A stretch of 64,000 nt of DNA from Patescibacteria group bacterium (lineage in GTDB: Bacteria; Patescibacteriota; Microgenomatia; Levybacterales; GWA1-39-11), in NCBI GenBank assembly GCA_035549295.1, contig DASZRG010000039.1, forward strand, positions 31 to 64,030, given 5' to 3'. Positions 12,828-40,395 of this stretch are shown in pieces. Position 1 is the stretch's first letter. Each line of letters opens with the position of its first letter. Position numbers and translations under genes: made by a program. The notes beneath the pieces are model-generated. The model made no database searches, was not told the origin of the DNA, and saw nothing but the letters and a program-made list of their open reading frames with translations.

Positions 12828-15800
12828 CTATTTCTTCTCTGTCGTAGGAGTTACCACTGGAGTTTCTGTGGACGCCATTGTTGGCGTCGCCGCGGGTGTC
12901 GGGGCTTGGGCCTGTCCTGATATTGTCGGGGTCGGTATTGAAGTCGGAGCTAAGGTCGGAGTTGGCGTAATTTTTTGTGTTGGAGTTGGAGTTGAAGTCG
13001 GTGACTGTGTCGGTGTATTAACCACGCTTTGAGACATCGCTGGTGCTTGGGAAGGAATTGGCGTCGCAACAGGTGTTGTTGCGGGAAGCAACAAGCCTTG
13101 ATCAGAACACCACGTAATTTTTCCAGCAGAAATTGTTATATCATTCTGCCAAGAAGCTGTTTGCCCCTCTGTGTTAGAGTTTTTTATTGACGCCCCAGTT
13201 GTCGTACTTCCAGTACCACAATCTGTTTGCTTCCATCCCCCTGTCAGACCATTTTCATAAACAAGTATCCCATAATTACCTGCAGGAATTTGGTCAAAGA
13301 AAACCCACCCATCATCTGTACCGACAGTTTTTGAGGTAGCTGTCTGAATAACAGTATTTCCTGTAGTGTCTGTTAGTTTTGCCGTTGCACCATTTACATA
13401 TTTACCATCTGGCGAACCATTGCTCCCAATTTCTCGGACTCTAAAATGGATTCCACCTGCTGCTTGTGTATTTGGATTTTTGAGACCTACATCAGAACAC
13501 CACAAGATGTCGCCGCCAGGAATATGCAAATTTGATTGCCAAGCTGCTGTTTGATTTTCAGTGTTGTCGTTTTGTATGGTAACTGAATTCGTAGTGCCAC
13601 TATTGTTGCAGTCTGTTTGTCGCCAATATCCTGTGTACCCTTTTAAGTAAGTTGCGGCTCCATAGTATCCAGCCTGCACATTATCAAAGAATACCCAGCC
13701 ATCCTCACCATTCACTGTTTTTGAAGTTGTTGTTTGAAGCACGGTGTTTCCAGTTGTATCAGTCAGCTTCGCCGTTGCACCATTTATATATTTCCCAGTC
13801 CAATTTCCCGAACTATCAAATTCCTTTACTCGATAGTGAACTCCCCCATTACCGTGGAATCCAAGGTCGTAGCAATAATTTGTAACTCCTGCAACAATAA
13901 CTACACTATTATTCCATGCAGCCTTATTGTTCTCAGTTTGTGAATTTTGAATAGAGGCATTTGGGTCTGATGCTCCTGCACAGCTTGTCATTTTCCAAAA
14001 TCCTTCAAATCCCGCCTTGTACGCCATAAGGCCATAATTTCCAGCTGGAATATTTTGGAAAAAGGCCCATCCATCTTGACCATTGGATGCTTGAGTTGTT
14101 GTGCTTTGGATGACAGTAGAGCCTGTTGGATCGGTGAGCTTAACCGTCGCACCGTTCACATGATCTGTTGCAAGATACGATTTTGGAACATTTGGATCAT
14201 TCTCTATTAGATCTACTCTCATCGCCAAATTTCCAGATGTAACCGTTTGCAACCCCTCATCAGAACACCACGTTATTTGATTTGGCATAACTTTCAAATT
14301 ATTCTGCCAAGCAGCCGTGAAATTGTTCGTATTTTGATTTTTAATATTTGCGCTTTGCGTAGTGCCTGCGCCGTCACAAGTTGTTTGTTTCCAAGCGCCT
14401 ATCGAATTCCCTTTGTAAGTAAGTGCTCCATATTGGCCGGATGGTACATTGTCAAAAAATACCCAACCATCTTGCCCATTTACTGTTTTTGAGGTTGTTG
14501 TTTGAAATGCAACAGTACCGGTAGTATCAGTCAAAACCGCCGTAGCATCGTTAACAAACTTTCCAGTTGGATTACCATTTTTGTCTATATCCCGAACTCT
14601 AAAATGTATGCTTCCATTGCCAGTTGGCGTTTCGGTGAAACTAACAAGATATGCAGAGCTTGTCGCAGGAGTTGTGAAGTTATGAGACTGAGCGAGTTTG
14701 TCAGACCACGCGTTAAAGTTATAGTTAAAACCGTTCAGCGTTTGAAGGTTTGGAGTATCAAGACCGTGTATAAAACCTACAACACTTTCTACATTATACG
14801 GAGTGCTATGCGGGATACCATCTAGCATAAAAGTAAGACCGCTTACCGGGTAGCTATCAAACGTAAGATTAACCGTGTTCGGAGAAATAATCCTACTTGT
14901 GGTTGCTGATAGACCTGACGAGTCAACTACAGTTAGTATTATTTCATAACTTGTCTCGGCTGATGGCTCGCCAGTATTCGGAATTACAAAAGTTCCATTT
15001 TTAACTCCCTGTATTTGGTCTATGAATGGATGAATATGTGTTTGATGATGAAAAATAACACTCCAGGTGAAATCACTTGCTGGTAGGTCTCCGTCTTGCG
15101 CGTCGTTTGCTTCTCCGGAAAACGATATTGTATCTCCAGCGTTATAATGTGTCCCGTCAATCGGTGTGTCTATCTTTGGCACAGGAAGAGTCTTGCCGAC
15201 TGTTATTTTAGTGCTAGCGTTTGTCTTGCCTTTTGCATTACTAACCGTGAGTACAACTGTATATGTTCCATTGTTTTGATAAGTATGGGTAGGATTGGCT
15301 GATGTTAACTTTGAACCATCTCCAAAATCCCAGGAATAGGTAAGATTTCCACCTAGAGGATCGCTTGATCCTGCACTCGAAAAGGTTACTTTCAAAGGAG
15401 CAAGTCCGGCAATAGGATTTGCCGTAATTGCCGCAACGGGGGGAAGATTTGTTGCATTGTAAGTAATTTTGTACATTGATCCGGTATTTGAGCTAAAAGT
15501 CGAGTCAGCAACAGTTACGAAATACATGTTGCCATCTGGCCCATTCATCAAATCAACAACCTCACCAGCAGCATCATCAAAAGCATTGTCAGAAATAAAA
15601 TCTCCCTCAGAGTCAATTTTTAGGTATCTTATAAACCCCTTTGCGTAATCTCCATAAAAATAAACGCCTTGCATACTAGATCCAAGACTAGTCGACGAGT
15701 TAACATATCCACCGACAACTGCTGCCGATCCACCGTTATGCTGATAAGTAAAGAGAGGATCTATATATTTTCCGTTCGGAGGCGTACACGGACCCTCACA

Positions 15801-16556
15801 ATCAGGCCATCCGTAGTCTCCGCCTTTTTGAATTATATTAACCTCCTCAGTCGTCGCCTCACCGACGTCTCCAACAATTGGTCTACCATCAGGCAAAAAG
15901 TTAAATCTAAAAGGATTTCGAAATCCATATGCCCAAATACTTGCCTGTCCACCAGCAAGGCCGTAGAATGGATTGTCAGTTGGTATAGACCCATCAGAGT
16001 TAATCCTCAAAAGCTTTCCCTGTATATTTGATAAATCTTGTGAATTGGCGTTATTCGCGTTATTTCCAACTGATACCCAAAGCTTTCCATCCGGACCAAA
16101 GCGAAGTGTCCCTGATATATGATAAGTATTTAGTGTCTGAGTCGACTTTAGAAGAATCTTCTCGCTTCCAGCATTTATCGTATCCCCTGTTACAGTAAAC
16201 CTTGAAACTCTAAATTCATTAGGGGAAGCATTTACATATGCGAGGTAGACATAGTTGTTTGACGCAAACGATGGATCAAAAGCTATACCAAGCAGCCCAT
16301 GTTCTCCATTAGCATCAACGGGAAGTGTTATAGCCGGTGTTGCAGCAAGCGTTCCATTTTTATATATTTTGACCTCACCTGTCTTTTGAAGAATAAATAT
16401 CCGCCCATCAGGCGACTGACCCAATGCGTCTGGAAAGTTAAGACCTGAGACTACAGTGCTTTTTTGAAAACCTGTAGGTAATGCCGCCTGTACCTTTGGT
16501 ACAAAAAGCAATGACAAAAAAACTAAATATACTAGTACAAATAACTTCTTGAACAT
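12828..16556 (-). CDS. secreted 1242-aa multidomain surface protein: signal peptide, glucose/sorbosone-dehydrogenase-like beta-propeller, PKD domain, four ~128-aa Cys-containing CnaB-like (SpaA/carboxypeptidase-regulatory-type) repeats, and a Pro/Thr/Ser-rich C-terminal tail
   Basis: The signal peptide is MFKKLFVLVYLVFLSLLFVPKVQA. GLNFPDALGQSPDGRIFILQKTGEVKIY is the SGDH-type propeller start. LTYSWDFGDGS...HTYQNNGTYTVVLTVSNAKG is a PKD signature. Four repeats match the pattern HFRVRDID.NGNPTGKFVNDATA.LTDTTG..V.QTTTSKTVNGQDGWVFFDNVP.G.YG......W.QT.C......WCSD.GL. The tail is ...TPTQSPTSTPTPTQKITPTPTLAPTSIPTPT... Confidence 0.7.
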   Translation of the reverse strand: MFKKLFVLVYLVFLSLLFVPKVQAALPTGFQKSTVVSGLNFPDALGQSPDGRIFILQKTGEVKIYKNGTLAATPAITLPVDANGEHGLLGIAFDPSFASNNYVYLAYVNASPNEFRVSRFTVTGDTINAGSEKILLKSTQTLNTYHISGTLRFGPDGKLWVSVGNNANNANSQDLSNIQGKLLRINSDGSIPTDNPFYGLAGGQASIWAYGFRNPFRFNFLPDGRPIVGDVGEATTEEVNIIQKGGDYGWPDCEGPCTPPNGKYIDPLFTYQHNGGSAAVVGGYVNSSTSLGSSMQGVYFYGDYAKGFIRYLKIDSEGDFISDNAFDDAAGEVVDLMNGPDGNMYFVTVADSTFSSNTGSMYKITYNATNLPPVAAITANPIAGLAPLKVTFSSAGSSDPLGGNLTYSWDFGDGSKLTSANPTHTYQNNGTYTVVLTVSNAKGKTNASTKITVGKTLPVPKIDTPIDGTHYNAGDTISFSGEANDAQDGDLPASDFTWSVIFHHQTHIHPFIDQIQGVKNGTFVIPNTGEPSAETSYEIILTVVDSSGLSATTSRIISPNTVNLTFDSYPVSGLTFMLDGIPHSTPYNVESVVGFIHGLDTPNLQTLNGFNYNFNAWSDKLAQSHNFTTPATSSAYLVSFTETPTGNGSIHFRVRDIDKNGNPTGKFVNDATAVLTDTTGTVAFQTTTSKTVNGQDGWVFFDNVPSGQYGALTYKGNSIGAWKQTTCDGAGTTQSANIKNQNTNNFTAAWQNNLKVMPNQITWCSDEGLQTVTSGNLAMRVDLIENDPNVPKSYLATDHVNGATVKLTDPTGSTVIQSTTTQASNGQDGWAFFQNIPAGNYGLMAYKAGFEGFWKMTSCAGASDPNASIQNSQTENNKAAWNNSVVIVAGVTNYCYDLGFHGNGGVHYRVKEFDSSGNWTGKYINGATAKLTDTTGNTVLQTTTSKTVNGEDGWVFFDNVQAGYYGAATYLKGYTGYWRQTDCNNSGTTNSVTIQNDNTENQTAAWQSNLHIPGGDILWCSDVGLKNPNTQAAGGIHFRVREIGSNGSPDGKYVNGATAKLTDTTGNTVIQTATSKTVGTDDGWVFFDQIPAGNYGILVYENGLTGGWKQTDCGTGSTTTGASIKNSNTEGQTASWQNDITISAGKITWCSDQGLLLPATTPVATPIPSQAPAMSQSVVNTPTQSPTSTPTPTQKITPTPTLAPTSIPTPTISGQAQAPTPAATPTMASTETPVVTPTTEKK

Positions 16557-16646: not shown

Positions 16647-17222
16647 TTAAATACTGACTGGCTTTCCAACTGCAACAAACCTCTGCGTATCAAGAAATCC
16701 CGTACAAGTGTATATAGTAATTCTTGCATCCCCTGTCGAGTCCAGAATACTGGTATTACTAGGTGCAACAACCGTCGTATAGACAATTTTAAATGTCTTT
16801 TTAGCACCATTCGTATAGGTAATATCGACCAAATCGCCAGGCTTAACGCCCGTAAGCGGTCCTAAAAGACTTGTCCAATTATGACCGTAAAGCACACTAT
16901 TTCCAAGCATTCCTGGAATAGGTGAGCTAATAAGATATGATACGCCACTTGTTGTTGCCTGCCATGAATTGTTCTGTATTTGAGCAGGATATATCGGAAG
17001 ATTGATTTTGACTTTCTTTATGACTATCTGGCGTGGAAGCGTACCTGTCGATACGCTAGGCGTCTCCAAAACATTTTCAAAAGACAGATTTTGGGGACTA
17101 TATCGCTGAACCATCAAAAAACTGCCGAATGCAATAAGTAGGATTCCTATAAATAATGAGGTTTTCGCGAAAAAGCGCATAAGTGCTCCTTTACTTGTTT
17201 TCGCGGGATTTAAGAAGACCAA
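16647..17222 (-). CDS. sortase (class E-like transpeptidase)
   Basis: N-terminal TM anchor. The active-site His is in VLYGHN, the Cys is in the TLxTC motif (ITIYTCTG), and the Arg is in RFVAVGKP. It overlaps the upstream LAXTG substrate gene by 32 nt. Confidence 0.8.
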   Translation of the reverse strand: MVFLNPAKTSKGALMRFFAKTSLFIGILLIAFGSFLMVQRYSPQNLSFENVLETPSVSTGTLPRQIVIKKVKINLPIYPAQIQNNSWQATTSGVSYLISSPIPGMLGNSVLYGHNWTSLLGPLTGVKPGDLVDITYTNGAKKTFKIVYTTVVAPSNTSILDSTGDARITIYTCTGFLDTQRFVAVGKPVSI

Positions 17223-17823
17223 TTACTACAAAGAGTATACCCGCTCCAAAAATAGAAGCTATGAACTGCAGATTACCTGTGTTAGCAAGTCCAAATGCAG
17301 ACGCACCTAGAACCGCGTTGTCTGATCGGCCATCTGAGCGACCGTCTGAACGACCATCAGAAAGGCCATCTCCTGGACCGCCAGGGTTGCCGCCCCCTAC
17401 TTGTGGGTCTCCACATGTAAAATTGGCATTTTGGGCCAAATATGGCTCAGGTTCAAGACCCCATGCAGATCCATCTGGAACATATATCCAACCTTGACTT
17501 GTCATGACCTGAATTTGAGCAGGATCCATATTGCCGACTTTTTGCCAGTTTGTCTGAATACCTGCTCCATTGTCTGCACAGAAACATTGCATTAGATTGC
17601 CATCTGAGAGTGTATAAACAGTATCTTTTCCTGTGTGAGTCGCAGAATCTCCTACGATACCGTGAGTACCCGAATCGAAATTCTCTTTTACAGTTCCTTG
17701 AGGATTAACACAATTAGGGAAGTCAGCGTTCGTCGCAGCTGAGGCATGGCTTACTGCGCTTATCAATAAAGCTATATTTAGAAGTCCAATTTTTATACCG
17801 TTTTTAATATTCATATTAGGCAC
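17191..17823 (-). CDS. LAXTG-type sortase-anchored surface protein
   Basis: N-terminal signal peptide, a Cys-containing domain, a Gly/Pro-rich linker with (SDGR)x3, then the sorting signal LANTG, a hydrophobic segment NLQFIASIFGAGILFVVIGLL and a positive tail KSRENK. Confidence 0.7.
   Translation of the reverse strand: MPNMNIKNGIKIGLLNIALLISAVSHASAATNADFPNCVNPQGTVKENFDSGTHGIVGDSATHTGKDTVYTLSDGNLMQCFCADNGAGIQTNWQKVGNMDPAQIQVMTSQGWIYVPDGSAWGLEPEPYLAQNANFTCGDPQVGGGNPGGPGDGLSDGRSDGRSDGRSDNAVLGASAFGLANTGNLQFIASIFGAGILFVVIGLLKSRENK
17321..17368. repeat. in-frame 12-bp tandem repeat x4 (tctga-cg-cc-) encoding the (SDGR)n linker of the LAXTG protein
   Basis: Units are tctgatcggcca / tctgagcgaccg / tctgaacgacca / tcagaaaggcca. 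Confidence 0.6.
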
Positions 17824-17899
17824 AAAAATGTGTAAGAGTAGTATTATAATATATTATTATAGGTTTGTCAATAGGCATGCCGATACCTAGACTTTAGGT

Positions 17900-19150
17900 T
17901 TATTTTATGCCTAAGAAGAATTTACGGAGCTTAAATATAATATCCTCTTTTTCGCGTTTAAGGGTGATCGTCTGCTTACCGGATGGTTTGACTGAAATAG
18001 TCGTTCCGAAGTAGTTATCAGCCTCAACACGTGCACTCTCAGAGACTCCCACTATAGGTACTGTAAACATACCATTTTTATCAGTAAAGTATGTTTTATC
18101 GCCAATTATTATATATGCATTTGAAATACCATCTCCTAACTCATCAGAAATAACGCCACTCGCATTCTCAGGATTATAGGCTGTTTTGATAACTTCGGAA
18201 ACAGATCTTGCAGTTCCATTATCATTCCAGATAGATGTCGTACTGCCAATATTTGTCCAGTAGTTAACTCCAATAAGCTCTGGAGTACTTATTAGCTTTG
18301 AAAAAGCATCTGCGACCCACTGTTTTTGCTGTTCATCAGTCATATCTCCATTTATGTCCGGTATTGGTGCACCAAATTCACCCAAAACTATGCTCCCACC
18401 TGATTCTGCAGAAATGGCCTTTATATCTGACGTTAACTTTTCGGGAGTCGAAACGTAATGGTCAATAGTTACTACTCCATCCATTGCGGCTGTTGTCGCA
18501 TGATCCATAACAGCTCGAGCAACATCCCCGTTCATCGAGTCATAATTTGAAGCCACATTTTTGCCTATTGAGTGAAACGCTGACTTCGTAACCTTATATT
18601 CATCGATCATAAACTGTCGAAAACCATCAATGTCTCCTGTTTGTCTTGGGTCACCCGGTCCTCCATTCTCACACTCAGGACATGCAGTAAATATGTCTCC
18701 ATTTTCAAAAATGTCAGGGTGTTTGAGTATGAAGCTTTTCGTCATACTCATATGCTGTTCTCGAGTAATTTTGCTGTAGTTAAACCACCCTTCCCACCCC
18801 GAAAAATTACCTCTAAACCAAACATTTAAGTGGTATTTTCGCGCAGCAGCAACCCAATGCTCGAGCATGGGATAAAACTCCTCGTCATATGGCGTCGCAA
18901 TCGCGACATGTGTCGCGCCTAGATCTGCAATATTTTTAACCTGAGCATCAATTGTCGCCATAAAAGCTGGGTCGTTTAGCTTTTCGCGCGAAAGGTCACG
19001 AGAAAACTTCATCGTATCAATCGACTGGAATCTCCACCAACGCGTCACTGGACTGGAGGAAGCCCTATGACTCGTAAATAGTACAATTAAAAATATGATT
19101 GGAACGATAATAAGTAATTTACTTTTCATTTTTCTGAGTGTTTTCTTCAT
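17900..19150 (-). CDS. secreted putative glycoside hydrolase (clan GH-A-like TIM barrel) with a C-terminal beta-sandwich domain
   Basis: N-terminal TM/signal region. A candidate acid/base Glu lies in PECENGGPG and a candidate nucleophile in VLGEFGAP (xxExG), as in GH5/GH113-type enzymes. The C-terminal YIIIGDKTYFTDKNGMFTVP is carboxypeptidase-regulatory-like. The family assignment is tentative. Confidence 0.4.
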   Translation of the reverse strand: MKKTLRKMKSKLLIIVPIIFLIVLFTSHRASSSPVTRWWRFQSIDTMKFSRDLSREKLNDPAFMATIDAQVKNIADLGATHVAIATPYDEEFYPMLEHWVAAARKYHLNVWFRGNFSGWEGWFNYSKITREQHMSMTKSFILKHPDIFENGDIFTACPECENGGPGDPRQTGDIDGFRQFMIDEYKVTKSAFHSIGKNVASNYDSMNGDVARAVMDHATTAAMDGVVTIDHYVSTPEKLTSDIKAISAESGGSIVLGEFGAPIPDINGDMTDEQQKQWVADAFSKLISTPELIGVNYWTNIGSTTSIWNDNGTARSVSEVIKTAYNPENASGVISDELGDGISNAYIIIGDKTYFTDKNGMFTVPIVGVSESARVEADNYFGTTISVKPSGKQTITLKREKEDIIFKLRKFFLGIK

Positions 19151-19231: not shown

Positions 19232-20863
19232 TTACTTCTGGTACCCAAGCGTCGGTTTGGTGTTTATGGTTTTAAGAAACTGTGGCTTGATCTCATAGAT
19301 ATCGGCAAACGGATAGTGATTGACAAGTGTATAATCCCCATTTTTATATGCCGCCGTTTTACTCACGAGCTTAAAAGTTTGGTCGTTATTGTCATTTGTA
19401 CGCATAACTATCCATCTAGCCCACCTGTCGGGAGCAGTTGTCGCACTTATCCAGTAGGCGCCCGTTCCTTCGTGTATAAATTTACTCATTGGCAAACCAG
19501 ATGAGAAGATAATAGCATCGTGGGATGCGGCAGAGATCAAAACAAATCCAGGCTTATTTTTAGCATTAGCAGCAAGCCACCCAGAAACCTCAGTAACGTT
19601 TTTCTGACTTGAACCAACTCTCGCATCGTCAATAGTTACTGCATCGGCATTCGCAAATGAAAAGTAAAGAACAAACGCAAGAAGCGCAATAACAATAATC
19701 TTTAATTTATCAATTTTTTGAGTAAGATAGCCTATAAATATGGCAATCGAAGGCATCATGAGAATGCCGTATCGAACATTAAACCAGGTGTTTCCTGATA
19801 AGCCCTGAATAAACAAAACTGATTGTCCAGCATAGAGGGCTATTACGTTAAAAACAAGAGGCACAAAGAGTGCTGTGGCCGCAATTTTTATGTCAGTTTT
19901 TATCTTCTTATCAAGCCACAAAAATGCCGCACCTATTACCGAAAGAACTGAAATAAACGCGTTTGAGTTATATGCAAGTGCAAAAAGATAAACTTTTATT
20001 GAAAATAATAGATCGCCTTTTGTAGGTAGATTTCCAGCCTCAGAAAGCTGCGATTGTTGAGTCGCAGCAGCATAAGGTCCAAAAATAAAGTATAGAGGAT
20101 CTTTGAAGATCAAAAGATTCCACAAGAACCAAAGAGCTATTCCAAGCCCTGCAAGCGTACAAAAAAGAATAACGGTCCCCTCAGCTGCTTTGTATCCCTT
20201 TTTACGGAAGACTTGCAAAGCGATTAGACCGCTTGAGAAAACGAACAAAAACCAACCATCATAACGAATAAGGGTTGCGAGCATAACAAAGAACGCTGCT
20301 TTTATAAGGTGGAGAGTGTCGTCATATTTGAACCATTTAAGAAGCTGGTATATAGACGCCGTCATAGTTGCAATGAGGAGAAGTTCTGTCATTGCGGTCG
20401 ACTGAAGGTAAAGGACATTTAAATTTGCAGCAAAAACAACTACTCCCACAACTCTACCTAGAATTCCCACTCCAAGCTCCTCCAAGAATTTATATATAAG
20501 AAGTCCCGTTGCGACAAAAGATATCATCGAAACAATCGCCCCAGATAAACCTGAATGCCACATAAAATCATTCCAGATAGTCAAAACCATTAGTATGTGC
20601 GGCAAAGGAAGCCACACTGATCCAAGCTGAGCAGCACCAGGTTTCAAACCTTCGACAACACGACGTCCTATATCAAGATGTGACCTTGCATCGTTATATG
20701 CGAGACCTAATCCGTTTTTCAAGAAGAATAAGTAGTAAAATGTTGCCGCTGACACTAGAAGAAAAAGCAAAGCTTCAAATGTATGCTTTTGGACAAACTT
20801 ATTAATCGTACCAATGGTACTTTTATTAAACTCAAACTCTGATAAAAATTTATTCATTTTCAT
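19232..20863 (-). CDS. GT-C fold membrane glycosyltransferase (ArnT/PMT, GT39/GT83-like)
   Basis: About 12 TM helices with an N-terminal loop DARSHLDIGRR and a C-terminal periplasmic domain. The start probably lies at internal Met codons near 20863/20857 rather than 20908, which gives minimal overlap with the upstream ORF. Confidence 0.45.
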   Translation of the reverse strand: MKMNKFLSEFEFNKSTIGTINKFVQKHTFEALLFLLVSAATFYYLFFLKNGLGLAYNDARSHLDIGRRVVEGLKPGAAQLGSVWLPLPHILMVLTIWNDFMWHSGLSGAIVSMISFVATGLLIYKFLEELGVGILGRVVGVVVFAANLNVLYLQSTAMTELLLIATMTASIYQLLKWFKYDDTLHLIKAAFFVMLATLIRYDGWFLFVFSSGLIALQVFRKKGYKAAEGTVILFCTLAGLGIALWFLWNLLIFKDPLYFIFGPYAAATQQSQLSEAGNLPTKGDLLFSIKVYLFALAYNSNAFISVLSVIGAAFLWLDKKIKTDIKIAATALFVPLVFNVIALYAGQSVLFIQGLSGNTWFNVRYGILMMPSIAIFIGYLTQKIDKLKIIVIALLAFVLYFSFANADAVTIDDARVGSSQKNVTEVSGWLAANAKNKPGFVLISAASHDAIIFSSGLPMSKFIHEGTGAYWISATTAPDRWARWIVMRTNDNNDQTFKLVSKTAAYKNGDYTLVNHYPFADIYEIKPQFLKTINTKPTLGYQK

Positions 20864-22334
20864 AATCTTTTTTAGGTGTAAAAATAAAATACGCACCTGC
20901 TGCAACAACCAAAGCTAAAATAACGAAGTAATAAGCGACGGCTGGGATGCTTTTTTGCAAAACAAAGTTATAGAAAAATGAGTCAAGCTCACCCTTCTGA
21001 AGCATTCGAATGTTGATTATGTACCACGAATCAAGATTGATATATCTAGCCTCAACGTAAGGTGGAATAACATTTGTTGTCAGGGGAGCAAGGAGCGAAA
21101 TAGCTGCGCTGTATGTAAAGACCACGATGTATATAATTTTTACTAAAAGATTTTTTGCAAAACGCTGCAGTCCAACCCCAGCAAGAATACAAAGCTCGGG
21201 AAGTACTGCGATCATATATCGAGATCCAAACGCCCATCCACCATATGGATCTCCAAACATTGAATAAAGGACAAGACAAGTTGCAGGTAGAGCGAGTAAT
21301 CCTGCCTCCTCCCATTTTTTACTTTTTTTCAGATACCCTACTCCAAAAATAAATAACAAAACAACTGGTGAGTAAACCAAGATCCCACGGTCATGACTAA
21401 CTGTGAAAGAAGTAAGTCCATTCAGCAAATTCCTAGTTCTCAATGCACCCGTCGCATCAGTTCCTGATTCAGGAGCTGAAAGGTCAGTATTTTTAAGATC
21501 TTTTACTCTTGGAATGGTATTACTAAATTTAAGAGGGCTTCCGAAATGAATATAGTTGTAGTAACCATAAACAGTCATGAGTGCAAGAAATATAATCGGC
21601 GCAAAGATTACAAACCAATTTATTTTTATCTTAAATTTCTCTTTAAACTCTGTAATATTTACCATCTTGAGTGTTGCAAGCCCAACGATAGGCAAGAATA
21701 TAAATAGATTTGGAAAATCGACAAATACCGCCATACTATACAAAAACCAAGCGAGAATAGCCTTTATTCCACGCTTTTTGTCATCAAGCGGCAACACGAC
21801 GAAAAGCCCCAATAAGAGTAGAAATGCTGAAACTAAATGCGCATATAACGTAACCGAATAACCCCACGCGTTTGTTGCAAACCCAAATGCTACTGCTGCA
21901 AATGCTGATATGCTCCAGTGCAAACCAAGTCTCTTTGAGAACAGAAATATCATAATAATTGTCAAAAAGGAGAATATCGTTGAAATTGAAAAAGTGAATA
22001 TCTGAGCTGCTCCAAGTTGAGTTCCCAGAATATACAAAGGAATGGCCATCATAGATACGGCAGGCGGGAAAAAAGAGTAATAGTGACCTTTTAATGCACC
22101 AATGTCAGGCGTTCCCATTGAGGCATAGTTGTCTATCGCAAAAGAATGGTCATTGATAAGTGATAAAATTATTGCGTATCTAGACCTCTCCTGGGACGTT
22201 TCAAAAGCTTGACCAGAAGAATTCTCCTCAAACTCAATTTGATGCGGCGTAGGATTACCTGCTTGTCCACGAAAAGTAAGCGCAAATAAAAACAACGAAA
22301 ATACAACTAAAAATGGAAAAATATACTTTTTCAT
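20850..22334 (-). CDS. GT-C fold membrane glycosyltransferase (ArnT/PMT-like), second paralog
   Basis: 494 aa with many TM helices and a first-loop acidic motif (NDHSFAIDNYASMGTPD), in the typical GT-C arrangement. Confidence 0.45.
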   Translation of the reverse strand: MKKYIFPFLVVFSLFLFALTFRGQAGNPTPHQIEFEENSSGQAFETSQERSRYAIILSLINDHSFAIDNYASMGTPDIGALKGHYYSFFPPAVSMMAIPLYILGTQLGAAQIFTFSISTIFSFLTIIMIFLFSKRLGLHWSISAFAAVAFGFATNAWGYSVTLYAHLVSAFLLLLGLFVVLPLDDKKRGIKAILAWFLYSMAVFVDFPNLFIFLPIVGLATLKMVNITEFKEKFKIKINWFVIFAPIIFLALMTVYGYYNYIHFGSPLKFSNTIPRVKDLKNTDLSAPESGTDATGALRTRNLLNGLTSFTVSHDRGILVYSPVVLLFIFGVGYLKKSKKWEEAGLLALPATCLVLYSMFGDPYGGWAFGSRYMIAVLPELCILAGVGLQRFAKNLLVKIIYIVVFTYSAAISLLAPLTTNVIPPYVEARYINLDSWYIINIRMLQKGELDSFFYNFVLQKSIPAVAYYFVILALVVAAGAYFIFTPKKDYENE

Positions 22335-22336: not shown

Positions 22337-24118
22337 TTATGCAAAAGAACTTTTCAACTTTAATAATCTCATAAAATTACTATTGAAGAGAAGTCCCAAA
22401 TCTGATATCAAAGTTTGAAACTGGCGAGTATCAACTCTGCCTTCAATACAAATTCTATCGATCGTAAATTTGTCAGCATCTGACACTTGTCCACCATCCG
22501 TTGAAAATGCCGCTTCAAATCCAGCTTTCTTAACTACTTCTTTTACCTGGTCTGTATACTCACCCATAGGATACGCAAAGTATTTGAGTTTAAAACCAAG
22601 CTTTTTTTCAAGTCTTTTTTTGCCATCAATTATCTCTGATTTGAGTGCGGCAGCAGATAATGCCGAGAGCTTCGCGTGCGTGCTTGAATGGAAACCCACT
22701 TCCCACCCCATAGATTTAATCTTCCTCATATCCTCAATGGACATAAGCTCTTTTGTGTTTGCAAGAGTCTCTCGATTCGGCTCCTCGCTCGCTCCGAGGA
22801 CGAAGATCGTCCCGACAACACCTTCCTTTTTCATAATAGGGAGGGCGTCTGTCATGAAATCACGATATCCATCGTCAAATGTAATAGCTATGTTTTTGGT
22901 ATTATTTGGTTCATTAAGCATCTGATCAAGACTTACAATGTCTCGCATTTTTTTGATATATGCTATTTGCTTTTTAAAATTGTCTTCATTAACCGAATAC
23001 CTCCAACTATCATTGCTAATTGAATGGTAGCAAAGAATCGCAGGCTGCTCTGAAGCCTTTGACTTAAGAAGATTGTTGAGAAAACTTAAAACATTTAGAC
23101 CGCCAAAATAAATTTTTTCACCAAAGGTTGTTTTGTTAATAACTCCAAGATCAACTGCAACAGATTCCATATGCTTTTTAAGGAAGTTTTCCGCCTCGAT
23201 ATAATCTGGGTCGTTTTTTGCTCTAATCGCCATCATTTGAATAGCGTAATAGATAGATAGAGCGACAAATTTTTTCTTTTCTTGAGGTTTATCAAAAAAG
23301 CTACCGAATAGCTCGACCAAAGTTTTATGAGGTAATTCTTCAGAAAAGTATCGAACTGAATGAGCTGCATCTGTTTCAGGATCTGCTAGAACACAAATTT
23401 CAGGGTCAATAACATAAGCTTTTTTTCCTTTTATCAAAATATTTTGTGAATGTAGGTCTTTATGAGCTAAAATGTATTGCGTTCTAAATATAGAAGAATT
23501 TGCATATAGGCTCAAAAAACTACGCAAGTAAGAAAAATAACTCTTTATATTTTTAAAATCTCGCAATGTAACAAGCGTCAAGAATACTGGAAACGTCAAA
23601 GTTATTTGTAGTGAAGATCTCTTCGGAAGTTTTCTTAGCGTTTCAGAGGGTATATTTTTTGAGATATTTTTAAAGTCCTCGAGTATTCCTTTTATTGTTA
23701 CAACTTTTACCTTTTCGCTTACTTTGACAAGCGGTGTACCGTCAATTAACTCTGTCACAAGATGCAGGCTCGCAATGTTTGAGATAAATTCAAGAACTTT
23801 TGGAAAGGCTACTGTTTTTTTACCAGGTAGATTAGATAGTAGCTTGAGCATGTTACCTTCATTTAAAAGCTGTTCGTAAGCAAGATTTTTAGCACCAAAT
23901 TCAACAGTTTTTATAATAGCTTTTTTATTTTTTTTAGAACTAAATACTCCAACCGAAGTCCAACTTTCATCATTCTGCGCTTTTATAAGGTTGACAAGCT
24001 TATACCCGGCAACGCGATTAACATCTGAGGGTCTAGGGCTCTTCTTGAAAAGTCTTTCGTAAGCACCCATTATGCTACCTTTTAAGTAGTATTTTGCTGT
24101 TAAAAAATGCTCTTCCAT
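22337..24118 (-). CDS. bifunctional protein: N-terminal protein-kinase-like/APH-fold domain fused to a C-terminal polysaccharide deacetylase (NodB/CE4) domain
   Basis: The kinase-like catalytic loop is ILAHKDLHSQNILIKG (compare HGDLHPGNIL) plus a YVIDPE metal-binding-like motif. The CE4 motifs are ITFDDGYRDF, FHSSTHAKLS and YFAYPMGEY. The probable start is an internal Met at 24118. Confidence 0.55.
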   Translation of the reverse strand: MEEHFLTAKYYLKGSIMGAYERLFKKSPRPSDVNRVAGYKLVNLIKAQNDESWTSVGVFSSKKNKKAIIKTVEFGAKNLAYEQLLNEGNMLKLLSNLPGKKTVAFPKVLEFISNIASLHLVTELIDGTPLVKVSEKVKVVTIKGILEDFKNISKNIPSETLRKLPKRSSLQITLTFPVFLTLVTLRDFKNIKSYFSYLRSFLSLYANSSIFRTQYILAHKDLHSQNILIKGKKAYVIDPEICVLADPETDAAHSVRYFSEELPHKTLVELFGSFFDKPQEKKKFVALSIYYAIQMMAIRAKNDPDYIEAENFLKKHMESVAVDLGVINKTTFGEKIYFGGLNVLSFLNNLLKSKASEQPAILCYHSISNDSWRYSVNEDNFKKQIAYIKKMRDIVSLDQMLNEPNNTKNIAITFDDGYRDFMTDALPIMKKEGVVGTIFVLGASEEPNRETLANTKELMSIEDMRKIKSMGWEVGFHSSTHAKLSALSAAALKSEIIDGKKRLEKKLGFKLKYFAYPMGEYTDQVKEVVKKAGFEAAFSTDGGQVSDADKFTIDRICIEGRVDTRQFQTLISDLGLLFNSNFMRLLKLKSSFA

Positions 24119-24119
24119 A

Positions 24120-25013
24120 TTATTTGGTACTTGAGATCTGTGACCATGAACCACCTATTTTTCGTGGGCTTATAAATGAGACTAAATGCACATAAACTTG
24201 CACAAGTAAATATGCGAGAGAAACAATTAGATCTTTATTAAAGTAGATCATAAGAGTTCGAATTTTTTGGACAACTGTGAAGTGCGGACGCTTGTTTGGC
24301 AGAAAATCTAGCTCTTGATCTGATATATGACGCGATAAATAGCGACTCATTTGTTTTACATAATCTTTTAAATTTGCGGGTAACGAAAAATATACAACAG
24401 CACCCTTTTCAAACCCTATTCGTTTTCCAAGACTTTTTGCATAAAGGTAGTAAAACTCGTCATGCATATAGTTATATTTTTTAATTCTTGCTTCTGGGAA
24501 ATCTGCAATTCTGAGTATAATAACTGGGTCTGAACTTCGAAAAAACATTTGGTCTACTTTTGCTTTTTGCACCATATCTTCCCAGACATAAAACCCTAAC
24601 TGGCCAATTTTTTGTGCCAAGTTTTCAGCTTTTATAGGCTTTGCGAAGCCAGATACGGCAATCAGTTGGTTATTTGCTGTAATTTTTTTGAACAGCTTTG
24701 AAACAATTAAGTTCGATTTTATTTGAAGGTCTGCATCCAAAATTACCAAGAAGCTATATTTTTCGGTTTTTGCCTTTGAGATTAAGGCTTTGATTGCGGC
24801 GGTTTTGCCAACCTGTTTTTTTGATTCGATAACCTCAACGTATTTATTTTTGATATTTTTTATAATCTCAACTGATTTATCACGACTTCCATCCGAAAAA
24901 ACAGCAATTCTCCTATCAAAATTGCCCTTCTGGGAAAGCGCAGACATCACAACGCTCTCGATCGAACGTTCTTCGTTGTAGGCTGGAATTCCAATTAAAA
25001 TTCTTTTTTTCAT
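24120..25013 (-). CDS. family 2 glycosyltransferase
   Basis: ILIGIPAYNEERSIESVV...VFSDGSRDKSVEI...ILDADL (GT-A DxD). Confidence 0.75.
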   Translation of the reverse strand: MKKRILIGIPAYNEERSIESVVMSALSQKGNFDRRIAVFSDGSRDKSVEIIKNIKNKYVEVIESKKQVGKTAAIKALISKAKTEKYSFLVILDADLQIKSNLIVSKLFKKITANNQLIAVSGFAKPIKAENLAQKIGQLGFYVWEDMVQKAKVDQMFFRSSDPVIILRIADFPEARIKKYNYMHDEFYYLYAKSLGKRIGFEKGAVVYFSLPANLKDYVKQMSRYLSRHISDQELDFLPNKRPHFTVVQKIRTLMIYFNKDLIVSLAYLLVQVYVHLVSFISPRKIGGSWSQISSTK

Positions 25014-25019
25014 AACGAG

Positions 25020-25628
25020 CTAAATTGATGCAGATAAATTAGAAATTCTGTTGAAAAATATCATTCTCTGCCTCACGTATTGCCTAACAGACGAACCATT
25101 GAGTTTCTTTTTCATTTCCACATACTCCCTAAGCAACTTATTATTTGACTTTATTAGCTGATCTTGCTTTATCGTACTTGAAAAGCTTCTCAGGGATGGA
25201 TCAGCAAGCAAAACTTCTACTTTTATGTTATTTCGCATGAATTTCCACTCAACAAATCGTTTTCTTTCTTTTGTCGGTTCTCCAAACAGCTTACTAAGCT
25301 TAGGTGTATACTTTTCAAACTTTTGCGGTGGGCAAGCGATCAAGAGGTCCACATCATTAAGGCCAAGTATTTTATAACTGGCTGAGCCAACAAAATACAC
25401 TTTTAGAGTTGGTGTTATGTGCTTAATTTTAGCTATAATCTTCTGACCCGTTGTTGATAAATCTTTTCTGAAAGGCTTCATTACAACACGTCGCTTATTC
25501 GAATACGTATATAGATATAAATAATCTTTTGGAGATTCACATAAAAGTTTAAGATCAACCGCCACGTACTTAGCCAAGCTATTGAATCGTCTAATTATTT
25601 TTGAAGTAAAGCCTGCGATATTTTTCAT
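25020..25628 (-). CDS. nucleotidyltransferase-fold protein (GrpB / aminoglycoside-lincosamide NTase-like)
   Basis: YFVGSASYKILGLNDVDLLIACP fits the pol-beta-type GS-x9-DxD pattern. The start is taken at the internal Met (25628) to avoid a 50-nt overlap. Confidence 0.4.
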   Translation of the reverse strand: MKNIAGFTSKIIRRFNSLAKYVAVDLKLLCESPKDYLYLYTYSNKRRVVMKPFRKDLSTTGQKIIAKIKHITPTLKVYFVGSASYKILGLNDVDLLIACPPQKFEKYTPKLSKLFGEPTKERKRFVEWKFMRNNIKVEVLLADPSLRSFSSTIKQDQLIKSNNKLLREYVEMKKKLNGSSVRQYVRQRMIFFNRISNLSASI

Positions 25629-25632
25629 AAGC

Positions 25633-27633
25633 TTAAATCTCCACGATAACTTTCGTGCTCGTTGCAATCTCCCACATTCCATATGAATTTAAGCTGTCTG
25701 TGTATGGAGTGATTTTTAATATTAGGTTTAGCGCTACTGCCAAAGGTACATAGACTGGGTTTTTGAAAAGTGTTTTAAAAAGTCCTCGTAGCTTGTACAC
25801 CATTGAGATGTCGTGCAACTTCTCTACATCTTCACCAAAATATTCAACAAGTACGTCGCGTTCATTAAGAAACCTCTTGCCTTGCAATACAACTTCGCGC
25901 ACGTTTTCCGGTGTTTTAAAGAGAATTGAAACATTTTTAAGGAATCTAAATCCATTTTTCTCTTTCGCTTTTACATATAGATATTCTTCATCGCAGGTAA
26001 TATCTGAAGGATAAATGAAAGATTTTGAAAACTTTTTTCTTAGCATGCTCGCTCCTCCATAAAGGTTTGCGATATGATCCCCGCCGTTTATATCTTCCCT
26101 TGTATTATTCCAGAGCAAATTGTTCGCATAGATTATGCGACCCATCACGCTTTTTGCCTTAGCGGGAATAAAATTGCCTGCTGCAACTTGTGCTTTTTTA
26201 TCTTTTAAAAACACTTCAACCATTTTACCGAGTGTTTCCTCGTCCCTTAAATAAACATCGGCGTCAAAAGTTGCGAGCAAATCACTTTTGTTTATTTTGT
26301 AGATTTCATTTAAGCGGTGCGGCTTCCCACGCCTTACTATTCCCCCCATTACTTTTATTCGCTTATCACTTTTTGCGAGTTTCTTTGCAACCGACAAGGT
26401 TTTATCACTCGACCCGTCAATATTTATATAAATTCTTTCAAGTCTGAAATTTGAATTTTTCTGCTTTTTAATTGAAGCGATTAATTTCGACAAGTTACCC
26501 TCTTCGTTATATGCTGGAATGCCAACGCTTACAGAAACTGTATTTGACTTTATCGTATCTAAAATAACGTTTACTATCTTTCTGATTGTTTCCATGTTTA
26601 TGTCGTGAAACATAGGAAGACAGAGGATCCTCTTTGCAACTGATTCAGAAACAGGACAAGCTACATACTCAACATAAGGCATAGTGTTAAGTGATGGATA
26701 GAAATACCTTCTTGGAAATATGTTTTCTGCTTCAAGAGCTTTCTTAACAAGAAGAAGCTCTTCTTCACTTTTAAAAACAACTGGGAAATATGAGTAATTG
26801 TAAATAACGCTATTCAAATACTTAATTTCGTGAAGACCACTGTCCTTAAGAAGCCTTTTATACTCGTCGTACGCACGATTTCTAACCTCACGTATGGCAG
26901 GTACATATTTTAGGTTAGCAAGACCCATTGCAGCGTGCATTTCAGAGTTTTTAGCATTAATACCAAGTTCTGTTGGAAAACCTTCACGAGAAAGCCCAAA
27001 ATCACGCATTCTACGCACTTTCTTGGCGACTTTGTCGTTATCTGTTATTACAAATCCTCCCTCAACTGTGTGGAACAATTTTGTTGCATGAAGACTCAGC
27101 GTTGAAACATCACCGTATTTAAATATTGATCTGCCGTTAATTTTTACCCCAAACGCATGTGCCGCATCGTATATAACCTTGAGATTGTGCTTTTTAGCTA
27201 TTTTTTCAATTTTTTCAACGTTACAGGGATATCCAAACACGTGCACCGCAAGAATAGCTGTTGTTTCAGGCGTTATAGCAGCTTCAATCTTTTCCTCATC
27301 AATTGTAAGATCGTCTTCTTTGATGTCGACAAAAACAGGCTTACAATTCTCCCATACAATTGATGTAGTAGTCGCAGCAAATGTAAAAGGTGTAGTTATG
27401 ATTTCTCCACGAAGATCAAGCGCGCGTATTGCAAGTTGTATTGCAACTGTACCGTTTGTAACAAAAAAAGCATGTTTAACTTTTAGGAGCTTTTTGATGT
27501 TATTTTCAAGCTCCTGCGCGAGCACTCCGTGATTTGTAATCCAGCGAGATTCCCATGCACGCTTTAAAATCTTTTCGTACTCCTCAAAAGGTGGAAGAAA
27601 GGTCCTTGTAACTAATACTTTTTTACTTTGCAT
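25633..27633 (-). CDS. fusion: DegT/DnrJ/EryC1/StrS-family PLP-dependent sugar aminotransferase (N-terminal) + family 2 glycosyltransferase (C-terminal)
   Basis: The N-terminal segment carries FFVTNGTVAIQLAIRAL...AILAVHVFGYPCN...DAAHAFG (DegT). The C-terminal segment carries VSVSVGIPAYNEEGNLSKLIASI...YINIDGSSDKT...ATFDADV (GT2). Confidence 0.65.
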   Translation of the reverse strand: MQSKKVLVTRTFLPPFEEYEKILKRAWESRWITNHGVLAQELENNIKKLLKVKHAFFVTNGTVAIQLAIRALDLRGEIITTPFTFAATTTSIVWENCKPVFVDIKEDDLTIDEEKIEAAITPETTAILAVHVFGYPCNVEKIEKIAKKHNLKVIYDAAHAFGVKINGRSIFKYGDVSTLSLHATKLFHTVEGGFVITDNDKVAKKVRRMRDFGLSREGFPTELGINAKNSEMHAAMGLANLKYVPAIREVRNRAYDEYKRLLKDSGLHEIKYLNSVIYNYSYFPVVFKSEEELLLVKKALEAENIFPRRYFYPSLNTMPYVEYVACPVSESVAKRILCLPMFHDINMETIRKIVNVILDTIKSNTVSVSVGIPAYNEEGNLSKLIASIKKQKNSNFRLERIYINIDGSSDKTLSVAKKLAKSDKRIKVMGGIVRRGKPHRLNEIYKINKSDLLATFDADVYLRDEETLGKMVEVFLKDKKAQVAAGNFIPAKAKSVMGRIIYANNLLWNNTREDINGGDHIANLYGGASMLRKKFSKSFIYPSDITCDEEYLYVKAKEKNGFRFLKNVSILFKTPENVREVVLQGKRFLNERDVLVEYFGEDVEKLHDISMVYKLRGLFKTLFKNPVYVPLAVALNLILKITPYTDSLNSYGMWEIATSTKVIVEI

Positions 27634-28750
27634 AAGAAGCCTCCTTTTTTAGAACCATGTAGAAAAATTCTTCAAATTCGCTTGCAACGCGTGACCATGT
27701 GAACTTTGCAGCGTATCGACGAGCTTCTTTTCCGAGCTTGCCGTTTTGGTTTTTTTTGACTGCATCAAGCAACAGGCTTGCATACTCGTTTACATTGAAA
27801 GCTTTAGCCTTTGATGCAACATTGTCGCCTGTCCAAGAAATTCCTGGTATATCAAACGCAACGAGTGGAAGCTGTGAAGCCAAAGCTTCTAGTGCAAAAC
27901 ATGAAAATGTTTCATTTCTTGAAGGAAAAGCAACAAAAAGTGATTCTGACAAATATGCGGCTTTTTTGTCACCATAAGTTGGACCGACCATCGAAACTTT
28001 ATTTTCGAGTTTCAATTTCTTAATAAGTTCGGCAACCTTCTTCTCATCGGGACCATTTCCTGCTATAACAAGCGGATATTTAACTTTGTTTGCTATTTTT
28101 GCATAAGCATGGAGAAGCAGATCGATTCCTTTTTGATCCATATCAAGTCTGCCGAGAAAAAGAATATGCTTTGAGCGCTTTTTCTTTATTTTGAAGAATT
28201 CTTCACCGACACCTTCTGGTATAACTGTTGAGATAACTTTTGGGTTGGAAACCTTCATTTTCTTTTCAAAAAATATAGTCAACGCTACAAAATATTTGTA
28301 AAAACGAAGCCCAAAACGCTCGACTAGATAAAATGGAAGGTGGTACATTTTTGAAAAACGATCCGCTTCAAAAGACGTTGAAAGACCAACGACAGGAATA
28401 TTTGTAAACAAAGGCGAAAGAAGCGTTGAAACAGGAGCCGTAAAGCACTCGAGAATAACATCTACATTTTTGAGGCTTGTTACGGCAAGCGGTGCAGCAG
28501 CAAGATATGCGAAATTATTTACCTTAATGTTGCCCGTGCCAATACCGATATGCTTGTAATAAATTCCATTCTCAAATCTATCCTTATACCCTGGGTACTT
28601 TGAGCAAAGGACTGTGACTTTGTGTCCTTTCTCAACCAGACGACCACCAACCTCATAAGTTGCCCTTGCTTGGCCACCGTTAAGTATTGGATTTTTAACA
28701 TCATCAAGATCCAAAAACACAATATGCAGTCTTTTATTTATTTTCTTCAT
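27623..28750 (-). CDS. family 4 (GT1-clan) glycosyltransferase
   Basis: N-terminal LHIVFLDLDDVKNPILNGGQARATYEVGGRLVEKGHKVTVL. The C-terminal E-x7-E-like region is FPSRNETFSCFALEALASQLPLVAFDIPG. Confidence 0.7.
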   Translation of the reverse strand: MKKINKRLHIVFLDLDDVKNPILNGGQARATYEVGGRLVEKGHKVTVLCSKYPGYKDRFENGIYYKHIGIGTGNIKVNNFAYLAAAPLAVTSLKNVDVILECFTAPVSTLLSPLFTNIPVVGLSTSFEADRFSKMYHLPFYLVERFGLRFYKYFVALTIFFEKKMKVSNPKVISTVIPEGVGEEFFKIKKKRSKHILFLGRLDMDQKGIDLLLHAYAKIANKVKYPLVIAGNGPDEKKVAELIKKLKLENKVSMVGPTYGDKKAAYLSESLFVAFPSRNETFSCFALEALASQLPLVAFDIPGISWTGDNVASKAKAFNVNEYASLLLDAVKKNQNGKLGKEARRYAAKFTWSRVASEFEEFFYMVLKKEASYAK

Positions 28751-28751
28751 A

Positions 28752-31241: not shown

Positions 31242-31242
31242 A

Positions 31243-37446: not shown

Positions 37447-37674
37447 AGAATGTATCACGAGTTTAATACTACAAATAAGCAAAGTTCAATTAAGCAAATT
37501 AATCTATAAATGAATCAATGGATAAATTTATATTTAGAATTTTATACATTTAACAATTTAGAATTCATTTGAACTTTATCATTTGCATATTTGATTACTA
37601 AGATTGGCAGTGTTACCCATCTTAACTTTCTCCCCCGCACCTTTTCCAAAACCCTAGTATCTAATATCTAGTTT

Positions 37675-37902
37675 CTAGTCCCGCGTCTTACGTTTGTCGA
37701 CCTCTCCTTTGAGTATCTTAGTTACCCGTTCAAAATCTTCTTTTCTCACGTTCAATCTAAATCTCGCCGGCACACCATATTTCTGGATAGGAACACCTTC
37801 GAAATTATCCTCGCTTATGGACGTTTCAACTCCTAACTTTTTCAAAACTTCTTGAGCCCTTTCCGCCTCTATCCTCGTCCTAAATATCCGTATCCACACC
37901 AT
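37675..37902 (-). CDS. small hypothetical protein (DUF2007-like)
   Basis: 75-aa ORF ERAQEVLKKLGVETSI...FRLNVRKEDFERVTKIL. Weak similarity by memory. Confidence 0.3.
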   Translation of the reverse strand: MVWIRIFRTRIEAERAQEVLKKLGVETSISEDNFEGVPIQKYGVPARFRLNVRKEDFERVTKILKGEVDKRKTRD

Positions 37903-40388: not shown

Positions 40389-40395
40389 ATTTTGG

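Follow-up and report, generated by a model that had tools for sequence, protein, structure and literature searches.

A probably translationally coupled pair of divergent GT-C-fold membrane proteins in a conserved envelope gene module of Microgenomates bacteria

INTRODUCTION

What do two adjacent genes for large hypothetical membrane proteins contribute to the cell envelope of a Patescibacteria group bacterium, and onto which acceptor might their products transfer sugar? The two genes, here called A and B, occupy positions 19232 to 22334 of a 64,000-nucleotide stretch of contig DASZRG010000039.1 (assembly GCA_035549295.1), which we refer to as the window (~39% G+C). An original prediction, made from the DNA letters alone, held that A and B are paralogous GT-C membrane glycosyltransferases of the PMT/ArnT type, that they lie beside Pro/Thr-rich surface proteins, and that the operon may glycosylate the Pro/Thr-rich tail of a 1,242-amino-acid (aa) secreted protein. 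We propose instead, with about even confidence for and against, that A and B are a GT-C pair that uses a polyprenyl-phosphate-sugar and acts at the outer face of the membrane on an envelope glycan, as the core of a Microgenomates glycan machine.

The Patescibacteria are a very large, almost wholly uncultivated share of bacterial diversity, and their cell surface mediates an episymbiotic lifestyle. Most lineage-specific membrane proteins of the group are annotated as "hypothetical" (PMC6744442). In the library that we searched, we found no paper on the A or B family, on GT-C enzymes of the candidate phyla radiation, or on protein glycosylation in Patescibacteria, and none of the papers found there on sortases of Microgenomates or Patescibacteria concerns the gene cassette described here.

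RESULTS

The interval from 19232 to 22334 consists of two open reading frames (ORFs), both on the minus strand, at the coordinates and in the orientation originally described, and both encode polytopic membrane proteins:

20850..22334, minus strand: gene A, 494 aa; predicted GT-C-fold membrane glycosyltransferase of an uncharacterized family (ORF, AlphaFold2 and Foldseek)
19232..20857, minus strand: gene B, 541 aa; predicted GT-C fold with a C-terminal soluble alpha/beta domain; very highly conserved

The two proteins are exact matches to VG965_05665 (A) and VG965_05660 (B) of a Patescibacteria-group metagenome-assembled genome (MAG), each annotated by NCBI as "hypothetical protein." Translation of B may begin at the ATG at 20857 (541 aa, as in the NCBI annotation) or at an alternative ATG at 20863 (543 aa). 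The stop codon of A (20852-20850) lies inside this start region, so that A and B overlap by 8 to 14 nucleotides.

AlphaFold2 models were built for A from a 51-sequence alignment and for B from 39 rather similar sequences. The A model is of high confidence (predicted local distance difference test [pLDDT] score, 92; predicted template modeling [pTM] score, 0.93), and the B model is of moderate confidence (pLDDT, 74; pTM, 0.72). In Foldseek searches of the PDB, the significant matches of both models were exclusively GT-C enzymes. The A model has 15 matches at E ≤ 1e-3, with probability 1.0 and TM-scores of up to 0.51, and these include AglB (E = 3e-5), ArnT (the best TM-score, 0.51), ALG3, Pmt4, STT3, EmbA, and PglB. 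The B model has 10 matches at E ≤ 1e-3, also with TM-scores of up to 0.51, among them STT3/oligosaccharyltransferase (OST) (E = 5e-5), ALG12 (TM-score, 0.47 to 0.51), PglB, ALG9, AftB, and Pmt4. Based on these models, we conclude that A and B are GT-C-fold glycosyltransferases, in agreement with the GT-C assignment first made from the ORFs.

The narrower label "PMT/ArnT type" stands only at the level of fold and is not confirmed by hidden Markov model (HMM). Neither A nor B matches any Pfam model, even at E ≤ 10, and PDB searches with single sequences and with family profiles returned nothing meaningful for A, B, or the downstream gene C product and LAxTG protein introduced below. At E ≤ 10, neither protein matches PMT (PF02366) or YfhO; the PMT model finds one marginal match (6.3e-5) in the 51 members of the A family, and YfhO finds none in the 51 plus 39 members of the two families at E ≤ 0.01. 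No MIR or PMT_4TMC domain was detected in either protein by Pfam, and the STT3 HMM matches neither, so that the likeness to STT3, PglB, and AglB is structural only. Direct HMM classification, suggested as a check for GT39, GT83, and DUF2079 and extended here to YfhO, gave no Pfam assignment for A or B. The closest NCBIfam model is NF047440 (LA_3751/LA_3752 putative glycosyltransferase), which scores 49.7 bits with A and 26.7 bits with B against a cutoff of 200; by these scores the two proteins are related to NF047440 but fall outside its membership. The PMT_2 model (PF13231; gathering score, 26.1 bits), which we take to be the Pfam family that contains ArnT-like proteins, matches neither A nor B and only single close homologues (1 of 39 B members at 3.2e-3 and 1 of 51 A members at 2.1e-5). 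It does match 20 of 36 long, distant B-family proteins at E ≤ 0.001, with 27 to 35 bits in the six listed, and B is therefore, as judged from profile scores, a very divergent branch tied to PMT_2 through transitive homology. With no Pfam model of their own, the A and B families appear to be unclassified GT-C families.

Both proteins carry conserved acidic residues in the first loop. In the A alignment (51 sequences), E45, S47, E49, P76, and D77 are invariant. In the B alignment (39 sequences), D56, D62, and E69 are invariant in the loop that follows the first transmembrane helix, within YNDARSHLDIGRRVVEGLKPG, and all 36 of the long, distant relatives also have the Asp equivalent to D56, within a Y-x-D-A-x-S-H motif. 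These loops are predicted, from the Lys-rich N termini, to face outward. The Asp-Glu motif for which the original prediction proposed to look is absent, since neither protein contains a DE dipeptide; the sites closest to it are Q48-E49-R in A and N55-D56-A-R in B, and each protein still has its invariant first-loop acids. Neither protein contains WW, so neither has a WWDYG motif.

A and B share a fold and not a recent ancestry, and they are not detectable paralogues, contrary to what had been supposed. BLASTP of A against B gives an E value of 0.46, a search of each family's profile against the other family (hmmsearch) returned nothing significant except one fusion protein, and hhalign of the two families yields a weak collinear match of 279 columns (E = 0.0096; probability, 4%). 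The pair is probably translationally coupled: the stop codon of A overlaps a possible B start codon or lies within 7 nucleotides of one in 76 of 76 related loci. One protein, P0242, joins A and B in a single chain; it matches A at 32% identity (E = 5e-59) and the B profile at E = 1e-250. We infer from such features that A and B probably form a heteromeric complex.

B is conserved to an unusual extent. Every one of the 120 best B clusters (clustered at 90% identity) is 66 to 76% identical to B, the mean column identity of the B alignment is 74%, and two B peptide patterns place the protein in at least 549 species-representative genomes of the GTDB collection. The 80 best B loci have 59 to 74% identity, and those with informative titles belong to Levy-, Woese-, Davies-, Gottesman-, Ames-, Curtiss-, and Chisholmbacteria. 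Many GenBank MAG records with this Microgenomates-type cassette (in the range L005 to L076; B 60 to 74% identical) bear the title "uncultured Gammaproteobacteria," "Pseudomonadales," "Bathyarchaeia archaeon," or "Eisenbacteria"; these titles are probably wrong taxonomic labels on third-party assemblies. An exhaustive profile search finds 2614 representatives of the wider B family (50% identity clustering) at E ≤ 1e-3 and 815 at E ≤ 1e-30, including proteins from Chloroflexota.

The proteins of the window were compared by tblastn with 81 non-redundant related loci. In 65 of the 68 loci with enough flanking sequence, A is the gene immediately upstream of B. A third gene, C, comes after B, inside a narrow offset window, in at least 59 of 72 loci (74 loci have it overall), and after C come a small LAxTG protein and a sortase:

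17900..19150, minus strand: gene C, 416 aa; N-terminal membrane anchor, GH-A-clan-like TIM barrel, and CarboxypepD_reg-like domain (alignment and Pfam)
17843..17871, minus strand: sigma-70-like site, TTGACA-17-TATAAT, a perfect 12/12 match, between C and the LAxTG-protein gene (consensus match only)
17191..17823, minus strand: small LAxTG protein, 210 aa; predicted sortase substrate with an LANTG signal
16647..17222, minus strand: sortase; Pfam Sortase, 1.5e-17; His in LYGHNW and catalytic motif TIYTC

On the basis of gene order and homology, A, B, C, the LAxTG protein, and the sortase are a conserved five-gene envelope module. Median identities to the window's proteins are 65% for B, 51% for C, 41 to 44% for the small protein and the sortase, 32% for A, and 58% for a double GT2 protein encoded upstream. 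Because B is 60 to 76% identical across orders, it probably handles the invariant part of the product; a variable part probably falls to A, whose identity between most loci is only ~32%.

Orthologues of C in the related loci are 330 to 440 aa long and share an invariant set (R51, N115, DHY at 230 to 232, E258 in LGEFG, and W298) that, in our view, resembles the catalytic residues of glycoside hydrolase (GH) clan GH-A. Pfam finds weak Glyco_hydro_cc matches in 7 of 35 orthologues, GH5 in 1, and GH10 in 1, and a C-terminal CarboxypepD_reg domain in 18 of the 35.

The double GT2 protein contains two glycosyltransferase domains in tandem:

31243..33603, minus strand: double GT2, 786 aa; N-terminal GT2 of the polyprenyl-phosphate-sugar-synthase class, processive GT2, and transmembrane helices (Pfam, NCBIfam, and motifs)

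The best NCBIfam match of the N-terminal domain is PgaC_IcaA, followed by PgfS (3.5e-25), ArnC (4.7e-25), AglJ, a dolichyl-phosphate hexose transferase, and PpgS. The second domain matches CelA, PgaC, and XrtG-associated synthases and has DAED, TED, and QRSRW motifs, which together with the transmembrane helices we take to be the signature of a processive beta-glycan synthase. In 32 of 54 loci a homologue of this protein is encoded no more than 10 kb upstream of B, and in one (L003) its gene directly abuts A.

Gene fusions in the relatives of B repeat this neighborhood. We scanned with Pfam the 36 proteins longer than 690 aa among the 150 best B-family representatives. GT2 domains are present in 9 of them (8 of the CesA/PgaC-like Glyco_tranf_2_3 type) and GH5 in 8, with GH113, Glyco_hydro_cc, and GH2 in one each, CarboxypepD_reg in 3, and GtrA in 1. 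Individual architectures include GT2-GT2-B (P0297), GT2-B-GH113 in a member of the Ktedonobacteraceae (P0335), and B with Glyco_hydro_cc and CarboxypepD_reg (P0251), a domain set equal to B plus C. The same associations are thus found in the fusions and in the gene order of Microgenomates, and the fusions link B both with a processive synthase and with a domain that binds or cleaves glycans. In other lineages, a GT2-GT2 unit of the 786-aa type is itself further fused to the B-type GT-C domain and to GH113 or GH5 domains (P0297, P0335, and P0339).

Between A and the double GT2 gene lies a block of glycan-assembly genes whose content differs between loci and includes GT2, GT4, and sugar-modifying enzymes:

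22337..31436, minus strand: variable glycan-assembly block of six proteins (605, 297, 220, 666, 375, and 894 aa; Pfam and NCBIfam)
22337-24154, minus strand: kinase-like/CE4 fusion, 605 aa; APH/protein-kinase-like domain and CE4 polysaccharide deacetylase, immediately upstream of A
Within 22337..31436, minus strand: GT2, 297 aa
Within 22337..31436, minus strand: GrpB-like protein, 220 aa
25633-27633, minus strand: DegT/GT2 fusion, 666 aa; DegT/DesI-type sugar aminotransferase and GT2
Within 22337..31436, minus strand: GT4, 375 aa
28752-31436, minus strand: membrane/GT4 fusion, 894 aa; polytopic domain of ~500 aa with no Pfam or PDB match, and GT4

A homologue of the 605-aa protein is found near B in 31 related loci, and a homologue of the 894-aa protein lies upstream of the cassette in 45 of 54. 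The DegT-GT2 fusion suggests that the glycan contains an amino-deoxy sugar, and a DegT aminotransferase in the locus has ArnB-type matches in NCBIfam. Identification of the N-terminal membrane domain of the 894-aa protein as a flippase was withdrawn in the light of its lack of Pfam or PDB matches; the protein might be the missing flippase or polymerase.

The LAxTG protein consists of a signal peptide, a domain of ~110 aa with four invariant Cys residues, a low-complexity linker, the sequence V-L-G-L-A-x-T-G-N, a transmembrane segment, and a basic tail; it matches nothing in Pfam or the PDB, and its globular domain appears to be an undescribed family. LAxTG is present in 52 of 55 orthologues, 26 of which have LASTG, and it is the sorting signal of class E sortases (PMC5148588). 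Among sortase class models, those for C, GN, D, and F outscore that for E with the window's sortase, and all are far below cutoff. The C-terminal LAxTG signal, hydrophobic segment, and basic tail, beside a sortase with a TLxTC-type Cys (TIYTC in the window), identify the two as a sortase-substrate pair of the LAxTG (class E-like) kind. In scans for promoters and terminators, matches were overall at background frequency, and the sole one to stand out was the 12/12 site upstream of the LAxTG-protein gene. In six related loci (L031, L032, L038, L044, L046, and L052), a small Pro/Thr-repeat ORF follows just after the sortase, with up to 88% Pro/Thr/Ser over 40 aa (no background control).

The protein proposed at the outset as the acceptor is encoded farther downstream:

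12828..16556, minus strand: 1,242-aa secreted protein; PQQ-type sugar-dehydrogenase beta-propeller, PKD domain, four repeats of ~125 aa, and a Pro/Thr tail (~12831-13090)

The propeller is of the PQQ-type glucose/sorbosone-dehydrogenase kind, and the repeats, of which orthologues hold 3 to 7, are SpaA/prealbumin-like and each end in Cys...WC-x-D-x-GL. Composition bears out the Pro/Thr/Ser-rich C-terminal tract, which covers ~87 aa and is 25% Thr, 20% Pro, and 10% Ser. The tail is thus real (45% Pro plus Thr), and the gene is on the same strand as B, 2.7 kb downstream of it. It is "beside" A and B only in a loose sense, however, because the 1,242-aa gene is separated from B by three genes (encoding C, the LAxTG protein, and the sortase) as well as by two promoter-like sites, and the 210-aa neighbor is not Pro/Thr rich. 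One of the two sites (16593-16565) lies ahead of the 1,242-aa gene, which thus has its own promoter-like site.

The idea that the tail is the dedicated acceptor of A and B, with the operon as its O-glycosylation pathway, is contradicted both by synteny and by the conservation of the tail. A homologue occurs within 10 kb of the cassette in only 1 of 81 loci, and there it matches residues 90 to 366 (the dehydrogenase domain) at 25% identity, with neither repeats nor tail. The closest orthologue (P0395; 66% identity) is on contig CAZYWG010000013 of GCA_964651815.1, and the cassette of that assembly (L005) is on a different contig, CAZYWG010000001; A, B, and C are absent from the neighborhoods of P0395 and of another orthologue, P0407. 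P0395 and P0396, the closest orthologues, both have Pro/Thr tails, but of 19 full-length orthologues only 3 end in a long Pro/Thr/Ser tract. Another 5 end in low-complexity sequence that is short or of a different kind, 1 carries a Pro/Thr linker internally, and 10 lack a tail altogether. The tail is therefore not conserved in orthologues, which had been named beforehand as evidence that would overturn the idea. By gene order, the 1,242-aa protein is not a conserved part of the cassette, and we regard it as extremely unlikely to be the dedicated acceptor. The LAxTG protein is a much better candidate.

DISCUSSION

The fusions, together with the synteny of B with a processive GT2 and a GH-like protein, point to a glycan polymer. 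For A and B we infer a donor (polyprenyl-phosphate-sugar), an acceptor (a glycan polymer), and a site of action (the outer face), which can be arranged in a pathway as follows. The PgfS/ArnC-like N-terminal GT2 domain of the 786-aa protein would load a sugar onto polyprenyl phosphate at the cytoplasmic side, the lipid-linked sugar would flip to the outer face, and A and/or B would then move it onto the polymer by means of the first-loop acids (E45, E49, and D77 in A; D56 in B). The polymer itself would come from the QRSRW-type processive GT2 domain and the other, variable cytoplasmic glycosyltransferases of the locus, and the membrane-anchored, GH-A-like C would trim or remodel it. A donor-supply GT2 and a polymer synthase are both encoded in the locus, as the two domains of the double GT2 protein.

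Two types of known system resemble this arrangement. As we propose for A and B, the mycobacterial arabinosyltransferases EmbA-EmbB and Aft are paired GT-C enzymes that build a wall polysaccharide from a polyprenyl-phosphate-sugar, and they are among the structural matches (7bvc, 7bvf, and 9dlh). Emb proteins carry carbohydrate-binding domains. They differ from A and B in that the matched PDB chains are ~1,050 to 1,090 aa long, their sequences are not similar, and they come from another taxon and another gene context. In the GtrA/GtrB/Gtr and CsbB-YfhO systems, as proposed here, a GT2 that makes a polyprenyl-phosphate-sugar works with a GT-C enzyme that acts on a premade polymer, and one relative of B is fused to GtrA. 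According to work cited in PMC12041528, a GtrB-class GT2 and a GT-C enzyme (YfhO) decorate teichoic acids outside the cell. In contrast to those systems, no GtrA gene is recognized in the window, and here two GT-C enzymes stand in fixed association with a processive synthase and a GH-like protein.

Several points weigh against a glycan polymer as the acceptor. The acceptor is unreadable from sequence; protein-, lipid-, and glycan-targeting GT-C families share one fold. The low-confidence loops of the B model include residues 49 to 97, its most conserved (invariant) loop. The fusions are carried by distant relatives (25 to 40% identity), whose function may differ, and neither a GtrA-type nor a Wzx-type flippase was identified in the window. 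Other points lead toward a protein acceptor. B is followed by the gene for the LAxTG protein in 49 of 64 loci and by that for the sortase in 46 of 64 (~75%), which suggests a link to a wall-anchored protein; linkers of the LAxTG protein have at least 30% Ser plus Thr in 30 of 52 orthologues; and PgfS, the second-best match of the N-terminal GT2 domain, comes from a protein glycosylation system with two GT-C enzymes. These observations would fit O-glycosylation of the Pgf or PMT kind, in which the GT2 would make polyprenyl-phosphate-sugar and A and/or B would glycosylate Ser/Thr residues in the disordered linkers of secreted or wall-anchored proteins, with the LAxTG protein as principal or founding acceptor and Pro/Thr tails such as that of the 1,242-aa protein as opportunistic ones. 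There is a precedent in Streptococcus mutans, where Ser/Thr-rich regions are glycosylated by PgfS (a GT2) together with two GT-C enzymes, PgfM1 and PgfM2 (PMC12041528; PMC5856776); the targets include sortase-anchored adhesins whose genes belong to the same cluster (PMC12041528). That cluster and the present locus share a PgfS-class GT2, two GT-C enzymes, and a sortase-anchored protein (PMC12041528). Pmt4 and Pmt1-Pmt2 are among the structural matches as well, and Pmt1-Pmt2 (PDB 6p25, matched by A) is a complex of two GT-C subunits; GT39 Pmt enzymes use a polyprenyl- or dolichyl-phosphate-sugar donor and act outside the cytoplasm, as we propose for A and B. The median Ser-plus-Thr content of the LAxTG-protein linker is 0.30, versus 0.17 in the globular part, and, as a weaker indication, 11 of 81 loci have an ORF with a 40-aa window of at least 70% Pro/Thr/Ser, a count with no background control. 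On the other hand, PgfM1 and PgfM2 are YfhO-family proteins, and A and B match no YfhO, PMT, or PMT_2 HMM; compared with GT39 Pmt enzymes, they also have no DE motif and no MIR or PMT_4TMC domain, and the Pro/Thr acceptor first proposed is not conserved. The linkers are not uniformly Ser/Thr rich: 9 of 52 have less than 15% Ser plus Thr, including the window's own DGRS-repeat linker (12%), and certain linkers are purely acidic or purely basic. The processive GT2, the GH5 and GH113 fusions, and the obligatory GH-like C play no role in known systems of this type (Pgf has neither a processive GT2 nor a glycoside hydrolase) and are left unexplained by this reading, and ~25% of loci have no sortase pair nearby. 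On balance, we consider O-glycosylation the main alternative to a glycan acceptor, possible but rather unlikely.

A lipid acceptor seems to us very unlikely. A and B would in that case glycosylate a membrane glycolipid or a lipid-anchored polymer, as ArnT does with lipid A or as do the enzymes that decorate lipoteichoic acid or lipoglycan. The likeness to ArnT and PMT_2 (GT83-type) enzymes is genuine, in that they share the GT-C fold, ArnT is the best match of A by TM-score, the locus encodes an ArnC-like GT2 and the aminotransferase with ArnB-type matches, and distant relatives of B belong to PMT_2. However, A and B themselves fail the PMT_2 model, and no ArnA/D/E/F set or other arn operon architecture surrounds them; their neighbors are GT2 and GT4 enzymes, a CE4 deacetylase, a GH-like protein, and a sortase. 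Unlike ArnT, they are a coupled pair with a GH-like partner and have relatives fused to processive GT2 domains, and there is no lipid A context. Patescibacteria are regarded as monoderm-like and devoid of lipopolysaccharide. Fusions with processive GT2 and GH domains point away from a lipid head group and toward a polymer that is either free or bound to the wall. A distinctly unlikely arrangement, which would join polymer and protein, is that A, B, C, the LAxTG protein, and the sortase are one machine, with the glycan built on the LAxTG protein or moved to it en bloc and then coupled to peptidoglycan by the sortase. If this is true, the main wall glycopolymer of Microgenomates would be tethered by a protein adaptor loaded by GT-C enzymes and not by an LCP phosphotransferase, and B would be a transferase of OST type. 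Such a role would agree with the STT3-like structural matches of B and with its extreme conservation beside glycan genes that vary. STT3, PglB, and AglB are the best Foldseek matches of B, and they resemble it in having a C-terminal soluble domain after the transmembrane bundle and in the invariant first-loop Asp; unlike them, B has no WWDYG motif and no STT3 HMM match, and the TM-scores are only ~0.46.

Whichever acceptor is used, A and B are very divergent GT-C enzymes, and the five-gene module is a new association, as are the GT2/GT-C/GH fusions. Two hypothetical families, one of which (B) is 60 to 76% identical over hundreds of species, are thereby given a fold and a pathway context, and the fusions in Chloroflexota and other lineages suggest that a polysaccharide machine of this type is widespread and unstudied.

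Other envelope genes are encoded in the same window, including Mur ligases, FemAB, and CE4 deacetylases. Those at 36544-43630 (a second CE4 deacetylase, two Mur-ligase-family genes, a FemAB-family gene, and another DegT aminotransferase) are a peptidoglycan/envelope gene cluster a few kilobases from the glycan locus.

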